Part shown: positions 1 through 12,500 of the stretch, one piece after another
Layout: each line of letters begins with the position of its first letter
How positions within the stretch are numbered: position 1 is the stretch's first letter
Source of the DNA: Myxococcota bacterium
GTDB lineage: Bacteria; Myxococcota_A; SURF-8
Length of the DNA stretch: 64,000 bases
Direction: 5' to 3'
NCBI GenBank assembly: GCA_965140415.1
Contig: OZ223209.1
Location: forward strand, 1,312,001 to 1,376,000
Made by a program: the position numbers and the translations under genes
Notes under the pieces: model-generated
Seen by the model: the letters and a program-made list of their open reading frames with translations, nothing else
What the model was told of the DNA's origin: nothing
The model's database searches: none

Positions 1-3000
1 TCATTCTTTTACTTCCCCGATCCTGCTGACGAGGTAAACCTGGCCAATCACGATTGCCAACGTGATGCGGATATCGAAATCGATCAGGACATGGAAACCA
101 TGGAAATCGATGTGACTGTTACGGCTCGCGGTGCTTGTGCTGAAGTGTTCAAGCAGTGGGAAGCCGGAGCGGCAAACATCACGGTCAATCCCTACTGGCT
201 TTGTGATGGCGGTGAAGATGTGTGCGACAATCCCTGGGATCGTCGCGCGGATAAAATATTCTATGATTTATCCGTAGAACCGGACCGTGTAGCGCTGCCG
301 CAATTGGATACCGCCGTTAACGATGCCTTCCGCTATAAAACCGCCTTCCGCAACCGGTCGGGAAAGAACATCGGATTTGCCCCCGAAATCTGCATTGAAG
401 GCTCGACGACGGCTCCCTATTGCTATGCGCCGTGGTTGATCGAGGAAAACCAGGAACGCGTCGATTGTGCTCTGTCGCTCTATCTCGACGAATTCAATAC
501 GCCGGGAGACGAGACAGCGGATCTGCTGCGGGGATATCTGGCTCGTAACTTCTCTTCTCGCTGCTTCGATGAAAATCTGGGAGCGGAAGCCTGTAATCGT
601 CCCGAAAACCGGATCGACGGCTTCGAGGCGCTCTCCAGCGAATTGCTGGTCATGCTGGGCGATGAATCCTATACCCGCGCATTCGCCAGTCGTTTCGATC
701 TGGCGGGAACCGGCAAAGCGGCTTTCGAGGGATCTCTTTTCGAGCCGGGCGGCATCAACCTGTCCGGGGTCGCCGGATACGAAATGTACAGCCTGTATCA
801 GGCAACCCAGTATTACCAACTTGCATTGGATCGCTTCTATCGCCTGCTGCCCGCGATTGCCGAATCCGTGGCTGCCGCAGACGGTGCTATCATCAGTGCG
901 GAAACCGTTACAAATTATCTCGATCGCCTGATCCGCGCCAGCACGCAGAAGTCGCGAGCCTGGAGTGAAGTGGCTACGCGCTACCAGAGCTTCAACCGAC
1001 CGGATCTGGCAAGGCGTGTCGTGCGCAGGGCTTATACCGCCACTTACCTGGAATCGGCGTTGATTACCCGCGTGATGCACAACATCATCGATGCCGTACC
1101 GCCAGAGAACGAAGCCCAGATTCTGGCTATCATCGATCAAGCCCAGATGCTTTACAAAGCGGCTCTGTTGGCTATGCGCGATGTGAATAAGGACATCACC
1201 GACGACGTGAACTATTTCGGCTTCTCGCCGGATTACATCCCGTTTTTGGCAACGGATTCCAGTAACTCCAATGCCTTTGAAAAACTCATGGATAGCGCCT
1301 GGAGTAAAGTCGAATTCGCGGCGGCAAAAGAGGACAAGGCGCTTAGTTCCAATCGTGATTACGAAACCGATTCAGCCTCTTTCCAGGCGGAACTGGTCAA
1401 AATCCGCAATTCCTATGAAACGCAGTTGATCGAGTATTGTGGTACATTTATTGGAACCGACGGTGCTACCTATCCGGCTATTGTCGAATACGCCGCCTAT
1501 CATCCCAAGGCTAAAATCCTGGCGGACCCCTGCGGCCTTGTCGGGAACGGCGCGATTTACGAAGAAATGGTTGGTATCGAGCAGGCTTCGATGGAACTGG
1601 ATCAGAAGATCCTGGAGCGCTCCAACATCATCGAGCGCATCAAGATCGAAGTCGATCGGCGCAACCAGGTTTGTGATGCAATCGAAGAATTGAAAGATTT
1701 CACCCTGAGTATGCATGACACCAAGATCGGCCTGCAATCGGCAATCGATTTGGCCGACATCATCGTCAACACGATTAAGCGTTCACAGGACTCGATTACC
1801 AACATCGCGGATTTGTCCAAATGCTCCGTCGGTACCAGTACTGACTGTCCTACAGCGGCCTGGTCCATTTCGATGGTAGCAGGAACGAGTATCGCCGCCA
1901 ATATTGCATTGACTTCGGTTGAAGCGGGAAAAGCGCTGGCGCAAAAGGGAATGATGGTGGCCGATAAGGAAATCGTGCGCATGGAGATGGATACCCAGTG
2001 CACCCTGGCCGAAATCGACTCCGATGCGGTGATCCGCAACCTGGCTTTAGACATGCTGACGGCGGATGTGGAAATCCACAAGGCCGCGCTGGCATTGCAA
2101 CTGGCGTATTCCCAGCTTGAAAAGCAGGTGAATACAGCGACGTTGACACGGGCGGAGTATTCGGAGATTCTTCAGCAGGCGATCAACGTCGAGGCGGCGC
2201 GCAACGATCCCAACGTCCGTATCTACAAGAACGACGCCGTCATCAATGCCGACCGTTCCTTCCAGACCGCTCTGCGAGAAGCGTACAAGGCGACCAAGCT
2301 GTTCGAGTATTACACCAGCCAGAGTTACGAGCATCTTGTGGATCTCTTTCTGGTGCGCATGGTTTCAGCCGGAGACTATAACCTTGAAAATTATCTCATG
2401 GAGCTAGACGGTGCGTTCTATGATTTCCAGGAGCAGTACGGCAACCCCGATCTCCGGTTGAGCATCGTGTCGCTGCGTGATGATGTGTTTAAGATTCCAT
2501 TATACGACGAACAGAATCCCGGTGTCGCTTTGCCGCAGAGCGAGCGTAACCGCTTGTTCGTCAATCGGTTGATGGAAGGAATGCGCTATGGGGAAGGCGG
2601 ATATCTTGTAAGCTTCAATACCCAGCTCGATCACATTTCCCCGTTGACTCGCAATCACAAGATCAATTACATCGAAGCCGAATTCCAGGGGGAAAACCTT
2701 GGAGATGAAGTCGGTAGACTTTATCTGATTCAGCGGGGAACGGGCACTGTTCATGCGGTGAGTGGAGATAAGGTATACTATCGTTTCCCGCCGCGTGCCG
2801 CCGTTATCAATACCTTCTTCAACGGCGATCGCAGTTTGCGTGTCGATGTCAACAGTAACGACATCTATGCAAACAGAAACTTGCGGGACCGGCCATTGAT
2901 CAACACCGAGTGGCAGTTAATCTTCGATCCGATTGCTGAGTGGGTCAACCAGGATATCAATCTCGATGGTATCAGCGATATCCGGCTGTACTTCTATTAC

Positions 3001-3021
3001 AACGACTACACCAGTCTCTGA
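1..3021 (+). CDS. 5'-truncated large protein with a TcA-like C-terminus (long helical hairpin plus TcB-binding-domain-like beta region)
   Basis: The frame is open from base 1 (SFFYFPDPADEV...), so the true start lies upstream. Long coiled-coil segments flank an apolar stretch (AAWSISMVAGTSIAANIAL). C-terminal motifs AYKATKLFEY, IVSLRDD, HKINYIE and TEWQLIFD...ISDIRLYFYY follow the order of TcA C-terminal motifs. Confidence 0.6.
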   Translation, partial: SFFYFPDPADEVNLANHDCQRDADIEIDQDMETMEIDVTVTARGACAEVFKQWEAGAANITVNPYWLCDGGEDVCDNPWDRRADKIFYDLSVEPDRVALPQLDTAVNDAFRYKTAFRNRSGKNIGFAPEICIEGSTTAPYCYAPWLIEENQERVDCALSLYLDEFNTPGDETADLLRGYLARNFSSRCFDENLGAEACNRPENRIDGFEALSSELLVMLGDESYTRAFASRFDLAGTGKAAFEGSLFEPGGINLSGVAGYEMYSLYQATQYYQLALDRFYRLLPAIAESVAAADGAIISAETVTNYLDRLIRASTQKSRAWSEVATRYQSFNRPDLARRVVRRAYTATYLESALITRVMHNIIDAVPPENEAQILAIIDQAQMLYKAALLAMRDVNKDITDDVNYFGFSPDYIPFLATDSSNSNAFEKLMDSAWSKVEFAAAKEDKALSSNRDYETDSASFQAELVKIRNSYETQLIEYCGTFIGTDGATYPAIVEYAAYHPKAKILADPCGLVGNGAIYEEMVGIEQASMELDQKILERSNIIERIKIEVDRRNQVCDAIEELKDFTLSMHDTKIGLQSAIDLADIIVNTIKRSQDSITNIADLSKCSVGTSTDCPTAAWSISMVAGTSIAANIALTSVEAGKALAQKGMMVADKEIVRMEMDTQCTLAEIDSDAVIRNLALDMLTADVEIHKAALALQLAYSQLEKQVNTATLTRAEYSEILQQAINVEAARNDPNVRIYKNDAVINADRSFQTALREAYKATKLFEYYTSQSYEHLVDLFLVRMVSAGDYNLENYLMELDGAFYDFQEQYGNPDLRLSIVSLRDDVFKIPLYDEQNPGVALPQSERNRLFVNRLMEGMRYGEGGYLVSFNTQLDHISPLTRNHKINYIEAEFQGENLGDEVGRLYLIQRGTGTVHAVSGDKVYYRFPPRAAVINTFFNGDRSLRVDVNSNDIYANRNLRDRPLINTEWQLIFDPIAEWVNQDINLDGISDIRLYFYYNDYTSL

Positions 3022-3066
3022 TTCTGATATACGGGTGGATTCCATTTCGCTGGAAACGAGGACGTG

Positions 3067-6000
3067 ATGAAACGCTTGAATGTCTGTTGGATCTCGATGC
3101 TTATGCTTTCTTTATTGCTGTTCACGGCTTGTGGCGGTTCAGGTGACAGCAACAATACCCCGCCCGATGGGGATGCCGATCAAATCGACAAGGAGATATC
3201 CGAAGATGGCGATGCGGATGTTGGTGATGGTGATATCGAGGAAGATGGTGCGACAATCGATGCCGATATCGATGGCGATATCGATGGCGATGCAGATGAA
3301 GAGTTGCCGGATGGAGATCTGGAAGTGGATGCCGATGGCGACACGGAGGGGCTTGTAGAAATCGATTGTGTGGCGTTGTACGGAGAAGGTTGGGCGTTCA
3401 ATCCTTCCGCTACGGAAGGCGATGGTTGCAAGGACTGTTCCACGAAAGTCTGCCCTGCCGAAAGTTCCGTCGGTATTTATCGCATCACCACTCTGGGAGG
3501 CCGATGTGTTTGTGAAACAGTAGACGACTATTTCTTCTCGGATACGACCTATCTTCCCACGCATTGCGACAGAGATCATGATGGTTGGGTGACGATCACC
3601 GCCCAGGAATTCGTTGAAAGCGACGATCCGGCGTTGCGGGAGAATGCTCGCTGTGATGTACGAACGGTGGAGCAGTTCTGGCTGCATCCCGAAGAGGAAA
3701 CCTACCCTGATGTCGAGGTCGATGTTGAACCGACCTCGCTTTACGAGCCGAACAACCGCGACGACCAGAACCAGCTCGATCTCGATGCCAGCCGCGCTCC
3801 GGAATACGGCAATGGTCGCCGACTTCGTGCTGATGAGTTGAACAGCCTGACCAAGTTCTGTGTAAACACCTTGGCGGATTATAACGGTAATGGCGTGGGT
3901 GATGTAGCGGAGTGGTCCGGGCATGAAGAACTGGACTCGACTTTTTCCGTATATGCACCTTTTGCATATTTCGCAGAGTTGAACCACGGATGGTACGATC
4001 CGGAAGATGGTGCGTATCATATCGCCGAAAACGGTCGTTTGAGTGATGAATTTCAAATGAGCGTTCCTGTCGTCACGGACGGTGGCAGCGAGTATTGGCG
4101 GCAGTGCCAACGTTTGACCGATGCCGCCTATGATCCCGAAGAACCGACGATCGGAATGGATTTTGCGACCTATGAAGGCATGTTCCATCATAGTCAGTTC
4201 AAGTGTCTGCATGTGGTGGAAGCTTCCGAACTGAGTGACCGCGAACCGCAAAAAGTTTCCGTAGATCAGGTGGCGGCTGGTTGGCGCTTGAATGAATGTC
4301 GGGTGCCGGATGATACGCCGATGGATGGAGATATCGATAACGAGTCTCTCCTGGACGGCGATCTGGAAGAAGAAATCGAGCTGTCCAGTCGAGGCGGCGG
4401 TGGTGACATAGACGGCGATGGGAGTGACGACGAAATCGAGTTCATTGACGGTGACGATGAGGGGAGCGTAGATGAGGACGAGCCCAATCCGTCTTATCCC
4501 GTGGTGGAATGCGAGGAGCGCGCAACAGTCAATGTCGGGGATGTCGGTCTGGCCGTGAGTAACTACATCGATTATTCGGCTGAGGGAGGCTATTCGCGTG
4601 GGTGCGTGAATGAATGCGTTGAAGGTTGGGGTGGTCTCGTCGACTGCAATGGCTACGAGGCAGGAACGGCGGATTGCGACACCGTTACTTCCGAATACGG
4701 CGCGGGTACTTGTGGCTGCGCTGGTAACTACGCCTATCCGGATTGCACCTCCTGCATCAACCATTATTCGTCGGAAAGCAACTGCACCGCCTGTTATGAC
4801 AATTCGGAGGAAGGTCACTGGAGTGGTGCGAATTGCGATGTGTGCCAGCAAAACTGGAACATCAATTCAGATTGTACCACCTGCATCAACCATTTTACTC
4901 CAGGTTCCGATTGCACCAGTTGCTACGACAACGACAATCGGGGGCACTGGACTGGTGACGAGTGTAATATTTGCAAGAATCAGTACACTCTGGCCTCCAA
5001 CTGCAAGCAATGCGAAACGAATTACACCTTGGAAAGCGCGTGTACGGAATGTTCCGGCAACTTCGATGTAGAGCAGAGCTGTGCTGAATGTCTGGATAAC
5101 GATACGGATGGTCACTGGACCGGATCGAGTTGCGATACCTGCCGGGAGAATTATTACAGCGGAGAGTTCGAGTCGGACAATCTGGTGATGACCGCTAACG
5201 GCAGCCAGACGATGGCGTATTGGGAAGATATGACGCCATCAAATTATGGTATTGAAGGTGGGGTAGGGTACATTCGGATAGACGTCAACCCATACATTCC
5301 GTATGTTACCTCGACCCACCAGATCATTCCTCTCGATTACGCACTTCCGATCATTGCGGACACGCAGTATCAGAACGTCAAGTTCTCCGTTCAAGCCTCC
5401 ATGAAATCCGTCGGTAACGTTCCGCTTATGGTTCAGTTCGTATACTACAATCGCGCTTACAAGAGTCTCGGAACAACGACATTTCAAAGTTCCGCTGCTT
5501 CATGGACCACAGCTGGACCGGAGACGTTTACTCTGACTACTGCCCAGCGGGAAATTCGTTTCGTCGTCGTTCGACTTATGACTTTTGGTGGAATCGGAGC
5601 GGGTTATTTCCGAGGCATAACCCTGACCGTTACTTCACCGAAAGTAGACAGCCAGCAATGCCGTTTCTGCGAAGCCGGGTATGCGGATGATCCGGATACG
5701 GAAGGCGATGACTGTCTGAATTGTCCTTCCGGTGTGATGAGCGAGGAACACTGGAACTCGAACGGCTGCTATAAGTGTGCGGATGACAATACGAACGGCC
5801 ATTGGGAAATGCCGGACTGTTCGGAATGTAAATTCCTGTGGAGCGGGCTTGGCTGTAATGTCTGTCAGGAAGGATCTTTCGCCAAGGATTCATCCGATCA
5901 ATGTACCAAGACAGCCAATCAGGCTTCCAATGGAGGTGCGGAATCCGCTGATATGAGCGCCTGGAACTCGAACATTCCTTTAACGCGCCACACCTCGCTG

Positions 6001-6423
6001 CACGATATCGATGCTGCCGCCAAGGGGCAGTACTTTTACTCGATGACGGATGCAGGAGGTGAAAACAATCCCTATGCCGAACAACGCATTACGGTGAGCC
6101 AGACGATTCGCGACGCCATTTCGGCAGGAAAGATCGGATATTTGAATGTGTTCGCATACCTTGCCGCTCACAATGAGTCCGATTCGCCGACCTTGAAAGT
6201 GTATCAGGTTACAAACGTTGGCGGCTCGGGAAGTCTGTGCAGCACTTCGCTCTCGACGGATAGTCCAACCTGGACTCAAATATCCAGATCCTGTTCGGTG
6301 AATAGCTCGGTCAAAGAGATTCGCATACGCCTGGAAGGCGAAAACGACAACGGCGGAGCCTGCAACGCATACTGGGACGACATCCAGGTGTTTTTCTCTG
6401 CCAAGACGAAAGATCTGTTGTAA
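3067..6423 (+). CDS. Large Cys-rich lipoprotein: DGD tract, Ca-binding-like loops, laminin-EGF-like repeats, two carbohydrate-binding-like jelly-roll domains
   Basis: Lipobox LLLFTA-C and GAGGA SD-like site upstream; GTG at 3064 or ATG at 3067. Contains DRDHDGW and DYNGNGVGD loops, four CxxCxD(N/D)xxxGHW repeats, and a C-terminal NGGAE...W...IRIRLEG...AYWDDIQV segment. Confidence 0.8.
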   Translation: MKRLNVCWISMLMLSLLLFTACGGSGDSNNTPPDGDADQIDKEISEDGDADVGDGDIEEDGATIDADIDGDIDGDADEELPDGDLEVDADGDTEGLVEIDCVALYGEGWAFNPSATEGDGCKDCSTKVCPAESSVGIYRITTLGGRCVCETVDDYFFSDTTYLPTHCDRDHDGWVTITAQEFVESDDPALRENARCDVRTVEQFWLHPEEETYPDVEVDVEPTSLYEPNNRDDQNQLDLDASRAPEYGNGRRLRADELNSLTKFCVNTLADYNGNGVGDVAEWSGHEELDSTFSVYAPFAYFAELNHGWYDPEDGAYHIAENGRLSDEFQMSVPVVTDGGSEYWRQCQRLTDAAYDPEEPTIGMDFATYEGMFHHSQFKCLHVVEASELSDREPQKVSVDQVAAGWRLNECRVPDDTPMDGDIDNESLLDGDLEEEIELSSRGGGGDIDGDGSDDEIEFIDGDDEGSVDEDEPNPSYPVVECEERATVNVGDVGLAVSNYIDYSAEGGYSRGCVNECVEGWGGLVDCNGYEAGTADCDTVTSEYGAGTCGCAGNYAYPDCTSCINHYSSESNCTACYDNSEEGHWSGANCDVCQQNWNINSDCTTCINHFTPGSDCTSCYDNDNRGHWTGDECNICKNQYTLASNCKQCETNYTLESACTECSGNFDVEQSCAECLDNDTDGHWTGSSCDTCRENYYSGEFESDNLVMTANGSQTMAYWEDMTPSNYGIEGGVGYIRIDVNPYIPYVTSTHQIIPLDYALPIIADTQYQNVKFSVQASMKSVGNVPLMVQFVYYNRAYKSLGTTTFQSSAASWTTAGPETFTLTTAQREIRFVVVRLMTFGGIGAGYFRGITLTVTSPKVDSQQCRFCEAGYADDPDTEGDDCLNCPSGVMSEEHWNSNGCYKCADDNTNGHWEMPDCSECKFLWSGLGCNVCQEGSFAKDSSDQCTKTANQASNGGAESADMSAWNSNIPLTRHTSLHDIDAAAKGQYFYSMTDAGGENNPYAEQRITVSQTIRDAISAGKIGYLNVFAYLAAHNESDSPTLKVYQVTNVGGSGSLCSTSLSTDSPTWTQISRSCSVNSSVKEIRIRLEGENDNGGACNAYWDDIQVFFSAKTKDLL

Positions 6424-6453: not shown

Positions 6454-7080
6454 CTAGCCCAACTGCGCCAGCAGCAGCGATTTCAGCCGCTCCAGGTCGA
6501 CCGGTTGCGGCTCGATGGGAATGCCCATCCAGTCGGAGAACTCGAAGATCTTTTCCGGGTCGTTCATTGCGACATCGTTGAACGAATCCAGGGGGCATAG
6601 CAGGCAGGCCTTGCCATGCTTGGGAAAGGTTTCGTTATTCATGCCGGCATCCCAGTTCGCGAAGACGGCCTTCCAGTACAGGAACCAGCCTGGTGTCAAC
6701 CAATACCGTTCCTGGCCTTCATACATCGTTTTGCGCTCTTCCACAGAGGCCAGAAAATCGAAGCAGTTGGCGGCCTGTAGCCGAGTCACTCCCGGTCCGT
6801 ATTCACCCATAATGCTTTCTACGCTCTTTTCCGGCTGTTTCATATCCAGGTAGCAGCGTTTTCCGTACAATACGATCACTCGCTCGGACTGCGCCGTCGC
6901 CTTTTCCAGTTGTTTGCGAAGCTGGCTTTCCAGTTCCGTCGGTTTGTCGTGTAGGCCGGGGGCGGTGTAGTAGATCTGGTCGGCATCGAGCCAGCCTTCT
7001 TCCTGCAACTTCGTCAGCTCCGGGCGCATGACTCCGCAGGATACGAGAGAATATCCTTTAAAGCTGTGTGTATCGGACAT
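6454..7080 (-). CDS. DUF1638-family protein
   Basis: SCGVMRPEL, PGLHDKPxEL, VLYGxxC and YWLTPGW motifs; AAGGAG SD. Confidence 0.8.
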   Translation of the reverse strand: MSDTHSFKGYSLVSCGVMRPELTKLQEEGWLDADQIYYTAPGLHDKPTELESQLRKQLEKATAQSERVIVLYGKRCYLDMKQPEKSVESIMGEYGPGVTRLQAANCFDFLASVEERKTMYEGQERYWLTPGWFLYWKAVFANWDAGMNNETFPKHGKACLLCPLDSFNDVAMNDPEKIFEFSDWMGIPIEPQPVDLERLKSLLLAQLG

Positions 7081-7172
7081 GTGATCTCCTTGCCTGGATG
7101 TAGGTGGTTCAGCTAGTAAGTTGAAATATTTATTTGTGATGCCTCAAGTCTAATGTCATTCTTCTGATCGTT

Positions 7173-8174
7173 TTATGTTGTTTTTAGTATGATGCCTTTA
7201 TCGAAGTAGCAAGTGTCCAGCCCTTCTGTGCCAATAAAGCTAGCTTCATTAATATTTTCCGCTTCTCGGAAATCTGCGTTATGGAGCAAGCATCTGTCGA
7301 AAACTGCACCTCTTAGATCGGCTCCGCTGAAAGCGGGTTTATAAATTGGAATGATATCGATTTCCTTCAAGTTTTCATCTCGTTCAATTTCTTCCCAATC
7401 TGCGGGGTCCGCCTTAACTTGGTCTTCATCCCATACGAGTTCTGAATTGGTAAAATTAGCTTTGCACAATCTCGAACAATGAAAAGAGCAATTTTCAAAT
7501 TCAGCAAAGGATAATTTTCCAATACCAAACTGAACCGCTTCACAATCAACAACTGAGAAGTCGACATTCACCAATTTGCTAAAATTATTCCTATGACTGA
7601 AACCATTTGAGAATTTACTTTCCTTCAATGAGCTAATGTCTATATCAAAAAAGGAAAAGTCTTTTACTTTCCACCCGCTGAAATCGATGTCCGTAACTCC
7701 ATAAGATGCAAGTTCTTGTAAAGCCGAGCCGATCGTCGCCTTTGCAAGCTCGTTATCTACGTCCTTGTAATCATCGATCTGACGACGAAGATGCTCGATT
7801 CTATTTTGCTGTTTTTGTTTGTGTTCGAAGATTCCAAGAATAATGACCACAAGAAAGATTTCCATGGTCACACCGACCATTTCAACAGCAACTCCTTGCC
7901 AATAATCGTTTAACAAATCCGTAAAATGACATAGAATTCCCAAGCATACCGTAAATAAGAATATGATGAGAAAGACTATAAGGCCCGGTTTCAGCCACGT
8001 TTTATTTTCACCGTAATACGTTTTGATTTGGATCGAATGTTTCGAGTAGATAGCAATCAGATCACGAATCCATTTGGCATAATAGACGTTCTGTGTTCGT
8101 GCCATATTCAAGAATTTCCTTAGCTTACAACCACTTTGATAACGTTTCCTCAATGATAGTATTATTAAAATCAT
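7173..8174 (-). CDS. Membrane-anchored pentapeptide-repeat protein (AT-rich; start uncertain)
   Basis: Two N-terminal hydrophobic helices; repeats such as FSGADLRGAVF and HNADFREA; visibly lower GC than the flanks. Confidence 0.75.
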   Translation of the reverse strand: MILIILSLRKRYQSGCKLRKFLNMARTQNVYYAKWIRDLIAIYSKHSIQIKTYYGENKTWLKPGLIVFLIIFLFTVCLGILCHFTDLLNDYWQGVAVEMVGVTMEIFLVVIILGIFEHKQKQQNRIEHLRRQIDDYKDVDNELAKATIGSALQELASYGVTDIDFSGWKVKDFSFFDIDISSLKESKFSNGFSHRNNFSKLVNVDFSVVDCEAVQFGIGKLSFAEFENCSFHCSRLCKANFTNSELVWDEDQVKADPADWEEIERDENLKEIDIIPIYKPAFSGADLRGAVFDRCLLHNADFREAENINEASFIGTEGLDTCYFDKGIILKTT

Positions 8175-8271: not shown

Positions 8272-10779
8272 ATGATGGAACGCGTTTCTCCCATGTTTGT
8301 GACCCTGCGCGAAAAGCTACAGGGCCTGGCGGCCAGACCGCTGCTGCTGGTCGTTACCGGACTGATTGTCGGGCTTTGCCTGGCTCATGCCGAGATGGCC
8401 TGCTGGTGGCAGTTCGTTCCGGCGGGAATGCTGCTTGTTGTCCTTTGGCGCTCTCATAGTCGCTATCTATTCAGTATTACACTGCTATTTGTTGCCGCAA
8501 TGCTATTGGGTCTGCGGCTAATACCGCATAAGGCGGAGTCATCGATTCCACCGGATCACCTGTTGTACGAGTATGCCAACCGACCTATGCTGTTAACCGC
8601 CATCGTGCAAGAAGCTCCCGAACGGGGCGCGCGCGCCAGTCATCTGCTGCTAAAGGCGCAGAGCTGTCGTCTTCCGGAGAGTGGACGAGCAAAGCAAGCC
8701 TGTCAGGGGCTCGTGCTGCTTTACATTACGGATCGATCCATGCCGTGGCGAGCCGGGGATCGTGTACAGGCGCGCATCATGGCTCGACCCACCCGCGATG
8801 AAGGCATCCCGGGTGCTTTCGACTACGCCACCTATCTCAATCGGCGCGGTATCTATGCGACCGCGTATGTAAAGAGTAGTCGCAGCGTGCGCATCGTGAA
8901 CGGACCGGAGAATCCGGGATGGATCGTCCGTATCGAACGGATGCGCAGTGAGTTGGCTTATTGGTTGGAGCAGCAGGCTCCTCCGCAAACGGCGGAGGCG
9001 TTGAAGGCGCTGGTGTTAGGGATGCGCAAGGGGCTGGACGGGAGCGTGTCGCAGATTTTTCAGCAGGCCGGGACGGCGCATTTGCTGGCGATTTCAGGGA
9101 TGCACCTGGGAGTTTTGACGCTATGGATTTACCACCTGGTTGCGATTTTGTGGCGGCGTTCGGAAATGCTGCTGCATTACGTTCGTGCCGAGCAGGCGGC
9201 CAGCTTTGCCGCCCTGCCTGCCATGTGGCTATACGCCTGTATGGCCGGACTGCGGGTGGCGACCTTGCGTGCGGGACTGGTTATCAGTATCTATCTGTTG
9301 GGACGTTTGCTGTGGCGTCGCTCGGACGCCATTAACAGCTTGTGCATTGCGGCGCTGATTATACTGATCGCCACTCCTTACGCCCTGTTTGAAGTCGGGT
9401 TCCAGTTGAGCTTTCTTTCGGTGTTGGCCATCGTGCTGGCCGTGCGCCGCATTCAGGCCGCGTTACCGCTGGCGCTGCGCCGCATTCTTTTCGAGAAGCG
9501 CTGGCGGGGGCGCATAATCGACTACCTCCTGTTAGTGACCATCACCAGTCTGGTCTGTTTTCTGGCCACCGCACCGGTAATTGTTTCCTCTTTTCATCGC
9601 CTTTCGCTGGTAGGACCGCTGGTCAACGTACTGGTCGTGCCGGTTTTTGCGCTGGGGATTATTCCTTTATTGGGACTGGTGACCGGGTTCTGGCTATTGG
9701 GATTCGATCTGCTGGCCGGATGGCTGGTGTCAGTTCCAAGCAGGCTGTTTGACATCATGGTTGCATGGCAAGGGTGGCTGGTAAAGCCGAGCTTCAGCAG
9801 TTTGGCCCTGCCGGATCTGCCGGTGTGGATTTTGGGTTTGTATTGGTTGGGACTGTGGTTTCTATTGCAGTCCATCCCGCCGCTGCACGGGCAACGCGGA
9901 CAGCCGGAAAGTCGTTTATGGTCGGCTTGGAGTGGACGTAAAACCTTGGCCTGTGCAAGCCTGTTGTGTCTGTTGCTGGCGTTTCTGATGACAGTGTGGC
10001 GTTATTTCTATCCGCCGCCATGGCTGGAAGAATGGACCGCGCTGATTCCGCCCATGTCGCAAGGCAGCACCGTATTCGTTCATCAGGATGACGGCGGTGT
10101 GCAACTGGTGTCTCCTGGTAGGCTTTCGGAAAATCGCTCGGATCCGGTAAAACGGGTCATCGCTCCGGTGCTGTGGAATACAGGACAAAGTCGTGTAACG
10201 CGTTTGTGGCGCAGCACGTTTAATGATCAGGAGCAGGCGGCGCAGCAGGCGCTGGAGTCGCTGTTTTCTGTTGAAGAAGTAGAATTCCTTTGGCGGGCGG
10301 GGACATGCCGTCGGGATGGTCCCCTGCGGCGTTGTATGCTTAAGGAAGGTACACGGCAAAGCGTTGTCTGGCTGTTCGAGAAAGAGGGGGGACGTCGTTC
10401 TGCGCCACGGGCTCGGCTGTTAGATATGCCTGCCGGGAAGGGACGTTTGCTGATTGCAGTGCAGCCGCATCGGATGACAAAAACCGATTGGCAGCAATTG
10501 GCAGCCCGATTGCCGGATGCGCCACTGGCGGTCGTCTGCTTTGGACCGGGACGCGTGGAGACACTGGCCGCGATGGGGCAGGAGTTGAAGCCGGAGTCCG
10601 TGGTGTTGGCGATGAATCGGCGTCTGGCGCGTTATCTCTCGGATACAGACTGGCAACGCATGCGTGAGCAGCTACCCGGCATATTGCGCACGGATCGTCA
10701 CGGAACGGTGGTTCTGGATGCGGCTTTACAGGCAAACACATTGGCCAAGCCTTCCTCGTTCTCAAGAAATCCCGAATAA
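8272..10779 (+). CDS. comEC: ComEC/Rec2 DNA-uptake channel with a degenerate beta-lactamase-like domain
   Basis: OB-domain motif PGAFDYATYL, competence-domain motif GTAHLLAISGMHL, GFQLSF, and terminal RTDRHG. Confidence 0.92.
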   Translation: MMERVSPMFVTLREKLQGLAARPLLLVVTGLIVGLCLAHAEMACWWQFVPAGMLLVVLWRSHSRYLFSITLLFVAAMLLGLRLIPHKAESSIPPDHLLYEYANRPMLLTAIVQEAPERGARASHLLLKAQSCRLPESGRAKQACQGLVLLYITDRSMPWRAGDRVQARIMARPTRDEGIPGAFDYATYLNRRGIYATAYVKSSRSVRIVNGPENPGWIVRIERMRSELAYWLEQQAPPQTAEALKALVLGMRKGLDGSVSQIFQQAGTAHLLAISGMHLGVLTLWIYHLVAILWRRSEMLLHYVRAEQAASFAALPAMWLYACMAGLRVATLRAGLVISIYLLGRLLWRRSDAINSLCIAALIILIATPYALFEVGFQLSFLSVLAIVLAVRRIQAALPLALRRILFEKRWRGRIIDYLLLVTITSLVCFLATAPVIVSSFHRLSLVGPLVNVLVVPVFALGIIPLLGLVTGFWLLGFDLLAGWLVSVPSRLFDIMVAWQGWLVKPSFSSLALPDLPVWILGLYWLGLWFLLQSIPPLHGQRGQPESRLWSAWSGRKTLACASLLCLLLAFLMTVWRYFYPPPWLEEWTALIPPMSQGSTVFVHQDDGGVQLVSPGRLSENRSDPVKRVIAPVLWNTGQSRVTRLWRSTFNDQEQAAQQALESLFSVEEVEFLWRAGTCRRDGPLRRCMLKEGTRQSVVWLFEKEGGRRSAPRARLLDMPAGKGRLLIAVQPHRMTKTDWQQLAARLPDAPLAVVCFGPGRVETLAAMGQELKPESVVLAMNRRLARYLSDTDWQRMREQLPGILRTDRHGTVVLDAALQANTLAKPSSFSRNPE

Positions 10780-10985
10780 TGACGGCTAGATAGAGGTGCC
10801 TGTTCGCAGGTGAACCAATCAAGCAGCCGGTTGTTGCCTTATTCCTCCGCTTCTGTATATTGTCTGCCTAGGATTGCAGCCATGAAAATTCTTGCCATTT
10901 GTTGTCCGATCTGTAACAGTAGCGAATGGTCGGGCGGAAACACGACCGGGATAACACGTAAATATTGGGGCAGAACGAGGGCATC

Positions 10986-12500
10986 ATGGTCGATACGCTT
11001 TTGGGGACGGGATTACCGTTATTACTGTTGCTGGTGGCTTTCATCTTTCCGCTGCTTGGATTGTGGGCGGAAGGTATGGATCGGCGCGGGCGCAGGTTTC
11101 TGATCGCCGTTCTTTTGCTGGATTTGCTGGCGGTCGTGGTGGTAATGCTCTGGTCGAATCTTCACAGCGGCTTGATGATCGGGCTTTTTGCCGTGTGTCT
11201 GTCCTTGGCCGTGGTGCATCTGAGCCGATCGAAAACTCAACCGGAACAGCAGAGCCAGAAAGCGTTGGATGACAAGATCGACTATGCCGAGGCGACCCGC
11301 AACATCGCGCTGTTTTCCGTATTCAATAACCTGCACGATCTGGTGCTCGTGACCAATCTCGACGGTATGGTGGTGTTCATGAACATGGTGGCGATCCGGC
11401 GCTTCGGTGACGGCGTCGGCTTTCCCTGTCATGCCGTGCTGGGCTGCGATACCGAGCAATGCAAAACCTGTTCGGTACGTATGGAAGGCGAAGAACTACG
11501 CCTGCCGCAGAATCGTGAGATGGTGGTCAAAAACCGGCAATACGATTTTTCGATCACGCCGATTCGCAACGATTCGGAAGGGCGCTGCATCCAGATTGCC
11601 CGGGACATCACGGAAAAGAAACAGCTTGAAACACAGATTCTCATGAACGAGAAAATGGCGTCATTGGGGCAACTGGTGGCGGGTGTGGCCCACGAAATCA
11701 ATAACCCTGTGACGGTATTGACCAACAACCTCGAAATCTGGGAGATGCTGCAAGGGAATCTGTCCGAGCAACTGAATTCCATGGAAAAACTGCTTGGAGA
11801 GATTCGCAGCGAAGGTAAAACCGGGTTGTCCTCTCGCATTGATGAGCTATTGCCTAGCGGCGAAGAGAATCCCATTCGTGAAATGCAGGCCCAGCTTCCC
11901 GATATGGCGCAGGACATGTTGGATGCAATCGGGCGGGTGCGCATGATCGTGCGCGACCTGAAAGAATTTTCGCATCATGGCGGCGAGCAACCCTACGAGG
12001 AAAACCTGAACAAGTTGATCAAGCAGACTCTGCGCATCAGCCACCACGAACTCAAGCGCAACATAACCGTGGTCGAAGAATTGGACGAAAAGCTACCTCC
12101 CTTTATTGGCTATCCGCAACAGATCAAGCAGGTGTTGTTAAATCTGATCGTCAATGCGGCGCATGCGATGCAGGAAAAAGAACAAGGAGAGCTGTTGATT
12201 CGCACCGGTGCGGATAACGGACAGGTGTTTATTACCGTAGCGGACAACGGTTCCGGTATGCCCGAAGACGTGCGGGAGCATATCTTCGAGCCGTTTTTTA
12301 CCACGAAGGAAGTGGGCACCGGAACCGGCCTGGGGTTGTCGGTGGTTTACGGTATCATCCAGCGTCATGGCGGAGAAATCAAGGTGGAGAGCGAACCGGG
12401 CAAAGGGACGCGCTTTTACATTGTGCTCCCGCGTATCATTCCATCCGAGCGGGAACGCTTGATTGAAGAAAGCAAGCAGTTGATTGCCGAGCAGCAGTGA
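10986..12500 (+). CDS. Membrane PAS-domain sensor histidine kinase (NtrB/AtoS-like), no adjacent response regulator
   Basis: H-box [16 protein letters not shown]-box [33 protein letters not shown] at 10986 follows GAGGG; a TTG at 10965 is the alternative start. Confidence 0.93.

Follow-up and report, generated by a model that had tools for sequence, protein, structure and literature searches.

Can the channel-forming component of a Tc toxin exist in a much reduced form, anchored to the envelope of the producing cell and without its usual partners? This question is raised by the first 6,423 nucleotides of a 64,000-nucleotide stretch of the genome of a Myxococcota bacterium (GenBank assembly GCA_965140415.1, contig OZ223209.1, positions 1,312,001 to 1,376,000 of the forward strand; hereafter, the window, with its first nucleotide as position 1). 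Two adjacent open reading frames (ORFs) in this region were proposed, in an earlier reading of the letters alone (hereafter, the sequence-only reading), to encode a non-canonical pore former resembling the TcA subunits of Tc toxins and a lectin-like lipoprotein, with no TcB or TcC gene downstream. Our analysis leads to an interpretation to which we assign a probability of roughly 0.7: the product of the first ORF (ORF1; hereafter, A) is a miniature TcA-like lipoprotein channel that belongs to a large, unannotated Myxococcota family and, together with its partner lipoprotein, the product of ORF2 (hereafter, L, or P0002), makes up in this genome a device that either carries no cargo or uses a cargo that goes unrecognised. 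The complete product of ORF1 is denoted P0003, its last 1006 amino acids P0001, and the genome itself G000; BC stands for the fused TcB-TcC proteins encoded next to homologues of A in related genomes.

The window corresponds to G000:C1:1312001-1376000 in a genome that is assembled on one contig (5.98 Mb, 93.7% complete). ORF1 is cut by the window edge, with frame 1 open from base 1 to the stop codon at 3019-3021, and its true start lies 2313 nt upstream of the window (G000:C1:1309688). The full A-like gene (G000:C1:1309688-1315021, plus strand) codes for a 1777-aa lipoprotein, of which the window holds the C-terminal 1006 codons and the stop (1-3021, plus strand; single copy in the genome). 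The N-terminus of A consists of a signal peptide with a lipobox (…LALTSGC), an acidic Gly/Asp/Glu linker (residues 26-70, Asp plus Glu fraction 0.42) and a Cys-rich segment (residues 70-210, 20 Cys). Because A itself is lipid-anchored, L is not needed as the anchor of the channel, one of the two roles (anchoring or targeting) suggested for it in the sequence-only reading.

The strongest evidence for the TcA-like nature of A comes from the predicted fold of its C-terminal part. An AlphaFold2 model of P0001, built from a 68-row family alignment (mean predicted local distance difference test score, pLDDT, 82.4; predicted TM-score, pTM, 0.71), begins with an alpha/beta domain that closes the non-TcA-like N-terminal part of the protein (P0003 residues 772-914; window 1-429, plus strand, as for all features of A and L below) and continues with a helical-bundle domain, possibly a reduced shell (P0001 144-400; 430-1200). 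The following channel-like region (P0001 425-813; 1273-2439) comprises a long helix (425-480), two very long helices that pair antiparallel into a hairpin (518-602 and 620-734), its tip modelled with low confidence (584-651; 1750-1953), and further helices (737-813), after which the protein ends in a beta domain (P0001 814-1006; 2440-3018). The coiled coil and the returning coiled coil that had been read from the sequence appear in the model as these two long helices. When this model was compared with the PDB using Foldseek, the first 21 rows listed (ranks 1-22) were all TcA chains, namely XptA1, TcdA1, TcdA4, XptA2, YenA2 and TcaA-TcaB, in both prepore and pore states (E 2.7e-12 to 1.4e-7, probability 1.00, 541-926 columns); the next row was ALIX, with an E value of 3.2e-4, and at rank 24 the beta domain was matched to the TcB-binding domain (E 5.7e-4, probability 1.00, TMt 0.49). 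VIA-align superimposed model residues 404..1003 on TcdA1 residues 2006..2516 (5lki_A; Z 14.2, root mean square deviation (rmsd) 8.9 A, 433 residues aligned) and the beta domain, residues 815..1003, on TcdA1 residues 2327..2516 (6l7i_A; Z 9.0, rmsd 4.4 A, 143 of 179 residues aligned), ranges of TcdA1 that we take to be its pore-forming and TcB-binding domains (Meusch et al. 2014). Both alignments reach the C-termini of the model and of TcdA1, and the longer one is collinear, running from the channel hairpin to the end of the TcB-binding domain. In a Foldseek-independent search, TcA representatives appeared at ranks 2, 4 and 27 (Z 12.7, 12.6 and 9.9) and were the only rows to cover the hairpin and the beta domain together, with 359-520 residues aligned. 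Some VIA alignments also extend to the helical bundle (144-400 against TcdA1 1774-2008), at an rmsd above 28 A.

The tip of the hairpin is modelled poorly, and its character is better seen in the family alignment, where a conserved KC…DCP loop is followed by an apolar stretch rich in Ala, Gly, Ile and Val. The best 19-aa Kyte-Doolittle window within the tip scores at least 1.0 in 58 of the 68 family members, and the median of the best windows is 1.34 in the tip versus about 0.6 in the hairpin arms. Two of the structural hallmarks of a TcA are, accordingly to the models, present in A: a C-terminal domain with the predicted fold of a TcB-binding domain and, directly N-terminal of it, a long predicted pore-forming hairpin with a hydrophobic tip. 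Taken together, the comparisons support a predicted fold of the C-terminal ~600 aa of A that is like the TcA channel hairpin plus the TcB-binding domain.

The sequence-only reading had come to TcA by a different route, through six short strings (AYKATKLFEY, ENYLMELDGAF, IVSLRDD, NHKINYIE, RPLINTEWQL and ISDIRLYFYY), which were compared with known TcA motifs. All six are indeed located in frame 1 between nt 2281 and 3000, at P0001 residues 761-770, 796-806, 822-828, 885-892, 964-973 and 991-1000, the last four within the beta domain and the other two just upstream of it (nt 2281-2418). The TcA motifs given there do resemble the consensus of six canonical, PF18276-positive myxobacterial TcA-like C-termini that were aligned for comparison, both whole and domain-only (…AERAYxFE…, …RMExAYLEQ…, …HxSLAQLDP…, …RRIRSVALSIP…, …SxWRLELP…, …TISDVVLHLRYTA…).

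A is not an isolated oddity but a member of a large family. A word-indexed search retrieved 498 relatives (best E 5e-262), the best 120 of which are 42-64% identical to A over the last 628 aa; among the matches listed, those with a name are annotated as hypothetical or EB-domain proteins and come from Myxococcota, Vulgatibacter incomptus among them. In this cultured species, homologues of A and L (P0032 and P0271) share one 4.35-Mb contig. An exhaustive search yielded 533 clusters (50% identity), of which 263 have E <=1e-30. Across an evenly drawn sample of 201 Myxococcota genomes (G000 counted in), the family was detected in 28, with up to four copies per genome. We further collected 19 loci with A homologues from species-representative genomes (16 from Myxococcota groups or Deltaproteobacteria, one from Proteobacteria and one assigned only to "bacterium"); tblastn matches extend over A residues 71-1777 in 16 of these, and the lipobox is found in the homologues as well. 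By its full-length similarity, its lipobox and its C-terminal module, A belongs to an unnamed Myxococcota family of mini-TcA-like lipoproteins.

Several members of the family are of interest in themselves. Four tandem A-like matches with L-domain matches between them occupy G011:C231:4704-27729, in a genome with no TcdB_midN match. One A-like gene (L021:5-4010) gives two separate matches, with the junction at query residues 1078-1080, due to either a frameshift or an assembly error. In G053 (contig C2), a 1230-aa lipoprotein (P0290; L039:2322-6014) is clearly related to the family in its channel and C-terminal domain, and its gene overlaps, at the end, with the beginning of a 2044-aa ORF that contains the TcdB_midN match of this genome, which has no L-domain match. 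P0290 was considered as a bridge to TcA and rejected: hhalign connects it with the family at 99.9% probability (E 1.6e-32) and with canonical TcA at only 3.1%. No fused forms longer than 3110 aa were found, which is weak evidence. Canonical, PF18276-positive TcA genes are rarer in the sample than the A family, being present in 6 of the 201 genomes (G026:C114, G050:C123, G108:C170, G149:C54, G160:C132 and G073:C349), on contigs different from those with the A family. The shortest of their open frames has 665 aa (on a 2.4-kb contig) and the longest 3626 aa, with four of the six falling within 2796-3626 aa; BC is encoded in five of these six genomes, and TcdB_midN is on the same contig in G026, G050, G108 and G149. 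Given that both the A family and PF18276-positive genes occur in the phylum, Myxococcota hold a classical TcA type and a miniature TcA-like one.

The second gene of the pair, predicted from sequence to be a Cys-rich lipoprotein about 45 nt downstream of ORF1 and co-oriented with it, conforms to that description: it starts 42 nt (GTG 3064) or 45 nt (ATG 3067) past the ORF1 stop on the same strand, and the protein contains 55 Cys in 1119 aa, with the lipobox Cys as residue 23. The spacer (3022-3066) carries an AGGA Shine-Dalgarno-like site and no promoter-like or terminator-like site, and we infer that A and L are co-transcribed. The gene spans 3067-6423 and is single-copy, coding for 1118 aa from ATG 3067, the likely start, located behind the AGGA site, or 1119 aa from GTG 3064. 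A signal peptide with a lipobox (…LFTAC; 3067-3132, Cys codon 3130-3132), the Cys of which (C23) is nearly invariant in the L alignment, is followed by an acidic low-complexity linker (3133-3375, Asp plus Glu fraction 0.40), the conserved N-domain (residues 105-415; 3376-4308), a second acidic linker (4309-4488, 0.45), a Cys-rich repeat region with 27 Cys that is common only to the closest L homologues (4489-5160), a Cys-free beta-rich domain (residues 700-862; 5161-5649) with no family match, a second Cys-rich segment with 10 Cys (5650-5883) and a C-terminal beta-rich domain (residues 941-1119; 5884-6420), for which a jelly-roll or galactose-binding-like fold is a lead only.

The two sugar-binding-like domains of the sequence-only reading correspond to two Cys-poor, beta-rich domains, neither of which has a Pfam or PDB sequence match, and the PDB sequence and profile searches returned no lectin; the only support for sugar binding is a set of Atlas leads to DUF642, GalBD-like and CBM_4_9 clusters for the C-terminal beta domain, with scores of 0.83-0.86, below the 0.9 level. 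The D/G-rich stretches that had been interpreted as Ca-binding loops are the two acidic low-complexity linkers (Asp plus Glu 0.40-0.45). Expansin_C reaches only E 0.14 for the C-terminal beta domain of L, and the MopE-type metal-binding motif PF11617 has no match in L at E <=1 (Atlas score only 0.75), although it is present in the variable parts of some L homologues.

L proved to be a conserved neighbour of A, which supports the pairing made in the sequence-only reading. The N-domain (residues ~105-415), the part of L that travels with the A gene, was found by tblastn downstream of the A homologue in 16 of the 19 loci, in one of them (L018) after BC; the loci without a match are L006, which ends inside A, L016, with 1.2 kb of downstream sequence only, and L020, where 5.8 kb downstream gave no match. 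Beyond the N-domain, L is shared by 4-6 homologues only, the other ~20 of the 26 matches covering 22-45% of the protein and differing in their C-terminal parts. Among the 201 genomes, the N-domain is present in 28, 27 of which are among the 28 A-positive ones, the mismatches being G053 (A only) and G052 (L only), and A and L are usually adjacent on the same contig. The linkage of A and L is as tight as a 201-genome sample can show, and L is a near-obligate partner.

Clustering of the ORFs in the 19 loci revealed a second conserved neighbour of the A homologues, a protein of ~2000-2250 aa. In the nine of these proteins that were scanned, the Pfam architecture includes SpvB, FG-GAP repeats, TcdB_toxin_midN and RHS repeats, that is, a fused TcB-TcC (BC); two of the nine end with a pretoxin-HINT domain, followed in one by HNH, and some have another C-terminal end. 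BC adjoins the A homologue in 10 of the 19 loci, upstream of A in five and downstream, after L, in the other five; a TcB-type N-terminus was detected by tblastn in nine, whereas in the tenth (L020) only the RHS part is available, the gene being cut by the contig end. The BC proteins open with Sec-type signal peptides. In the 201-genome sample, TcdB_midN is present in 54 genomes, comprising 19 of the 28 family-positive genomes and 35 of the remaining 173 (Fisher's p 1e-6, a value to be read with the caveat that related genomes are not independent). A and TcdB_midN matches are within 10 kb of each other on one contig in 13 genomes, and 12 of these 13 close pairs are on the same strand, with midN preceding the matched C-terminal part of A by 7-9 kb, a spacing that fits the gene order BC, small gene, A, L.

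Several observations weigh against the assignment of A to TcA-like channels. The Z scores of TcA in VIA (12.6-14.2) hardly exceed or fall below that of designed helical repeats superimposed on the 124-400 bundle (14.1), which is the background for helical models; the global TM-scores against TcA in Foldseek are low (0.19-0.28), since the long hairpin has another relative orientation than in TcA, and the rmsd is large; and the tip of the hairpin is modelled at a pLDDT below 50. At the sequence level, neither phmmer with the single sequence against the PDB nor the 68-sequence family profile finds a TcA at E values up to 10. Comparison of the family with canonical TcA by hhalign pairs the last 30 columns only, T.WELV…DIRLY.YYT with S.WRLELP…SDVVLHLRYT, in the whole and domain-only runs alike (E 0.029 and 0.0097, probability 1.7% and 4.2%). 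Two further points concern the gene context: 9 of the 28 family-positive genomes have no TcB-type gene, so that BC is not obligatory, and 31 BC-positive genomes have neither the A family nor a canonical TcA. Finally, a model of P0003 residues 200-990 (pLDDT 90.4, pTM 0.80), well covered in model residues 19-476 only, gave no TcA, neuraminidase or receptor-binding domain (RBD) rows in Foldseek or the VIA-wide search.

In line with these comparisons, Pfam (E <=1 for P0001 and P0002) and NCBIfam yield nothing meaningful for the product of either ORF; in particular, PF18276 (TcA_TcB_BD) has no match in P0001 (E <=1), in P0003 (E <=0.01) or in the whole genome, and A appears to lack a TcB-binding domain that is recognisable by sequence. 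Given the hhalign probabilities of 1.7-4.2% over 30 columns, the motif resemblance to TcA, taken alone, does not rise above chance, in contrast to the fold match and the gene context. Common descent of A with TcA is plausible, although not demonstrable from sequence, and the case rests on fold and context.

The N-terminal half of A appears different from that of TcA. In the 200-990 model, residues 26-153 resemble immunoglobulin-like (Ig) sandwiches of the PapD/MSP/ASH type (Z up to 11.6), and residues 152-476 resemble small closed beta-barrels (Z about 11). A Pfam-A hmmscan of the full 1777-aa protein returned 0 families at E <=0.01, with no VRP1, neuraminidase-like or receptor-binding domain among them; judging by these searches, A would not possess the large helical shell with VRP1 and a neuraminidase-like domain that is typical of TcA. 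The N-terminal ~1000 residues are instead predicted to consist of the acidic tether, the Cys-rich modules, a PapD-like Ig domain, a beta-barrel and a helical bundle. Because the N-terminal model has no TcA rows and Pfam detects no TcA domains, the likeness to TcA is limited to the last 600-800 residues, and A is best described, on the strength of the models, as a miniature with a different front half. What stands of the original TcA-like assignment is the predicted C-terminal fold, as captured by Foldseek and VIA against TcdA1, and not a Pfam TcA_TcB_BD match.

The absence of TcB and TcC, the other pillar of the sequence-only reading, holds for this genome but not for the family. There are no matches to PF18276, PF03534 or PF12256 in the genome (93.7% complete), and hence no SpvB or TcdB_midN gene anywhere, including immediately upstream of A; by contrast, as detailed above, 19 of the 28 family genomes encode a TcB-type gene, 13 of them within 10 kb of A. 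Genome-encoded TcB and TcC partners are thus missing here and present at the family level (19/28 genomes, 10/19 loci). The genome does encode two RHS-repeat lipoproteins, of 1877 aa (G000:C1:4448802-4454435, minus strand), with a CarboxypepD_reg-like domain, and 2066 aa (G000:C1:2145771-2151971, plus strand), both megabases away from the A-L pair; they were evaluated as a hidden BC and rejected, as they share with BC the RHS repeats only and have no SpvB, propeller or midN part. The nearest sampled relative, from the same family and another genus (G054), with an A protein 65% identical to the one analysed here, likewise encodes A and L and no TcdB_midN. In a quick tree (unrooted, and with the row L021, translated across a frame break, to be disregarded), this A and those of loci L003 and L004 form a clade (support 99 in the Shimodaira-Hasegawa-like approximate likelihood ratio test, SH-aLRT) that is sister to a BC-adjacent clade (support 94), and none of the three has BC in the available flanks. 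BC is missing from this lineage and not from the A family as a whole. At its core, the sequence-only reading is right: a TcA-like protein, a conserved lipoprotein paired with it and no BC in this genome.

The surroundings of the A-L pair can be summarised as follows. Directly upstream of A and divergent from it, a gene on the minus strand (L002:9995-13390, or G000:C1:1305995-1309390) encodes a 1131-aa membrane protein that belongs to no Pfam or PADLOC family; it lies in a low-GC island (33-40% GC versus 52-58% around) at the position that BC occupies in many relatives. On the other side, a pentapeptide-repeat protein gene (window 7173-8174, minus strand) lies in a second low-GC stretch (GC 0.40 at 7001-8000), so that the pair is flanked by two low-GC segments; PADLOC gave no match for the flanking low-GC genes. 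Further downstream are genes for a ComEC-type competence protein (8272-10779) and a PAS histidine kinase (10965-12500), with no evident link to A-L. Farther upstream, a cluster coding for an HdrA-like flavoprotein, an FlpD/MvhD-like protein and a CCG/4Fe-4S (HdrD-like) protein (L002:4971-9667, or G000:C1:1300971-1305667) hints at an anaerobic, electron-bifurcation-type metabolism in this organism.

How might such a pair function? By analogy to TcA, A, as an outer-membrane-type lipoprotein, would oligomerise into a funnel and a channel that inserts into a target membrane. L probably docks on A via its conserved N-domain, and recognition of the target, in trans, probably falls to the variable Cys-rich and beta-sandwich modules in its C-terminal part; they would thereby replace the receptor-binding domains that classical TcA proteins carry in cis. 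In the relatives, a Sec-exported BC cocoon could dock on the C-terminal domain of A, and the C-terminal toxin would pass through the channel. Small, variable genes located between BC and A are putative immunity genes and, along with the pretoxin-HINT and HNH ends of BC, point to interbacterial conflict rather than insect toxicity. In the genome analysed here, the A-L pair most likely would act as a cargo-less, membrane-attacking or permeabilising device, or else might use an unrecognised cargo. A broader scenario, in which Myxococcota possess a three-part, envelope-tethered Tc-like injector (A, L and BC) that is routed by Sec and lipoprotein export and delivers Rhs-type toxins without a type VI secretion system (T6SS), the BC-less A-L pair being an autonomous, contact-dependent pore weapon, is one that we put forward only tentatively.

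The lack of a TcB-type gene in the genome invites a simpler explanation, namely, that A and L are an evolutionary leftover: BC would have been lost in this lineage, perhaps where the low-GC island now lies directly upstream of A, and the pair would be decaying, with no present function. The sister position of the clade relative to the BC-adjacent clade agrees with such a loss. However, both ORFs are intact (1777 and 1118 aa), and every residue that is invariant in the 68-row family alignment is retained in this A. In comparison with the L003 orthologue, nonsynonymous divergence (pN 0.15-0.30) is far below synonymous divergence (pS 0.69-0.75) in every domain, including the TcB-binding-domain-like one (pN 0.278, pS 0.691); an exact ratio is not given because the synonymous sites are saturated. 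Moreover, G054, a member of another genus, has also retained A and L without TcdB_midN, and the 9 BC-negative genomes among the 28 family-positive ones argue in the same direction. We consider decay improbable.

It can also be argued that the likeness to TcA is one of analogy, or is very partial, so that A would be a surface adhesin or a structural protein of the envelope, with a coiled-coil stalk and a beta-sandwich head, and its association with RHS proteins would merely reflect shared conflict islands. The lack of significant sequence similarity to TcA, the VIA Z scores within the helical background and the adhesin-like Ig and Cys-rich modules of the N-terminal half are all compatible with an adhesin, but the gap of about four orders of magnitude or more that separates TcA chains from everything else in Foldseek (1.4e-7 or better versus 3.2e-4) is hard to reconcile with it, as is a fold match that is collinear across two domain types and ends at both C-termini. 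The neighbour, besides, is specifically of the TcB type (SpvB, FG-GAP propeller, TcdB_midN) rather than any RHS protein, and its spacing from A is fixed, on the same strand, in 12 genomes. An adhesin, then, seems unlikely. A different kind of alternative retains the channel and reverses its orientation: the lipid anchor would keep the A oligomer on the periplasmic face of the outer membrane of the producer, where BC would dock, and the channel would pierce this same membrane to export the toxin, as a secretion conduit and not an injector. Lipoproteins of Gram-negative bacteria mostly face the periplasm, Sec-type signals are present on A, L and BC alike, and we know of no route for a folded cocoon of ~2000 aa across the outer membrane, all of which speaks for this arrangement; against it, L, with its variable Cys-rich and beta-sandwich modules, and A, with its Cys-rich ones, appear to carry parts of the kind used in extracellular recognition, and in this genome there is no BC to export. 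This inverted arrangement is accordingly doubtful, and we favour the interpretation of A as a TcA-like channel that, with L, would act on a target membrane.

Comparison with known systems brings out the peculiarity of A. With the TcA proteins (TcdA1, XptA1/A2, TcdA4, YenA1-A2 and TcaA-TcaB), it has in common the apolar-tipped hairpin followed by a TcB-binding-type beta domain, collinear to the last residue, and the location of its relatives beside TcB/TcC-type genes. It differs from them in the lack of detectable sequence similarity; in size (1777 aa versus 2796-3626 aa in four of the six canonical myxobacterial frames); in the lipoprotein signal, acidic tether and Cys-rich modules; in a front half made of a PapD-like Ig domain, a beta-barrel and a small helical bundle; and in having a near-obligate, separately encoded partner lipoprotein, with BC missing in this genome. 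A is therefore TcA-like in its C-terminal module and yet falls outside TcA as defined by sequence and by N-terminal architecture. Tc toxin complexes measure about 1.7-2.4 MDa. They are described as soluble, made without signal peptides and released by cell lysis (PMC10847048, PMC10847046).

Closer in gene content are the Type 3 ABC toxins, defined in sections of PMC12705794 as a single TcA without RBDs or CBDs plus a fused TcBC. The relatives of A similarly combine one A-like gene with a fused TcB-TcC gene, and no canonical RBDs were found in A. The Type 3 data set, however, was restricted to proteins with a neuraminidase-like domain, and Pfam VRP1 is present in every member (same sections of PMC12705794); A has neither domain by Pfam, and BC is absent from this genome, which places A outside this type. 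The same sections mention neither lipoproteins nor a partner gene comparable to L for the Type 3 toxins. A possible analogy to L is offered by the chitinase subunits Chi1 and Chi2, which decorate YenTc (PMC12705794, in part): these, too, are separately encoded accessories that give the A component an interaction with carbohydrates or targets. L differs in being a lipoprotein and in having no chitinase or other Pfam domain, and its binding to A is a proposal.

Within the phylum, the relevant comparison is with the large Sec-dependent Rhs and teneurin-like proteins (TLPs) of myxobacteria, the delivery of which is, in the portions of PMC10433427 and PMC13018210 that deal with it, either T6SS-independent or with no machinery evident. 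The A-L-BC systems share with these the phylum, Sec or lipoprotein export, RHS/YD cocoons and polymorphic C-terminal toxins; the difference is that the Rhs proteins and TLPs are cargo or shell with no assigned channel, whereas A is a channel-like component, in this genome without a TcB-type partner. Known Tc loci come mainly from Gamma- and Betaproteobacteria and Firmicutes (Song et al., PMC7861908, main text), and a term search of that main text gave no occurrence of Myxococc- or Deltaproteobacteria. A search of the literature, which did not extend to the taxon and locus supplements of PMC12705794 and PMC7861908 that possibly contain canonical Tc loci of myxobacteria, retrieved no account of a TcA-like family of lipoproteins or of the partner protein.

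If A is what it appears to be, the module composed of the channel and the TcB-binding domain would exist at about half the usual size of the protein, and a Tc-like machine would be lipid-anchored and Sec-exported, that is, would follow a different export route; L, in turn, would represent a new kind of accessory subunit. The A family is invisible to Pfam-based surveys and yet is present in 28 of the 201 sampled Myxococcota genomes and comprises 533 clusters. It is a candidate answer to the question of how myxobacteria deliver their large Sec-dependent Rhs and teneurin-like toxins in the absence of a T6SS route, and the BC-less pair described here may serve as a natural experiment on a TcA-like channel without cargo.

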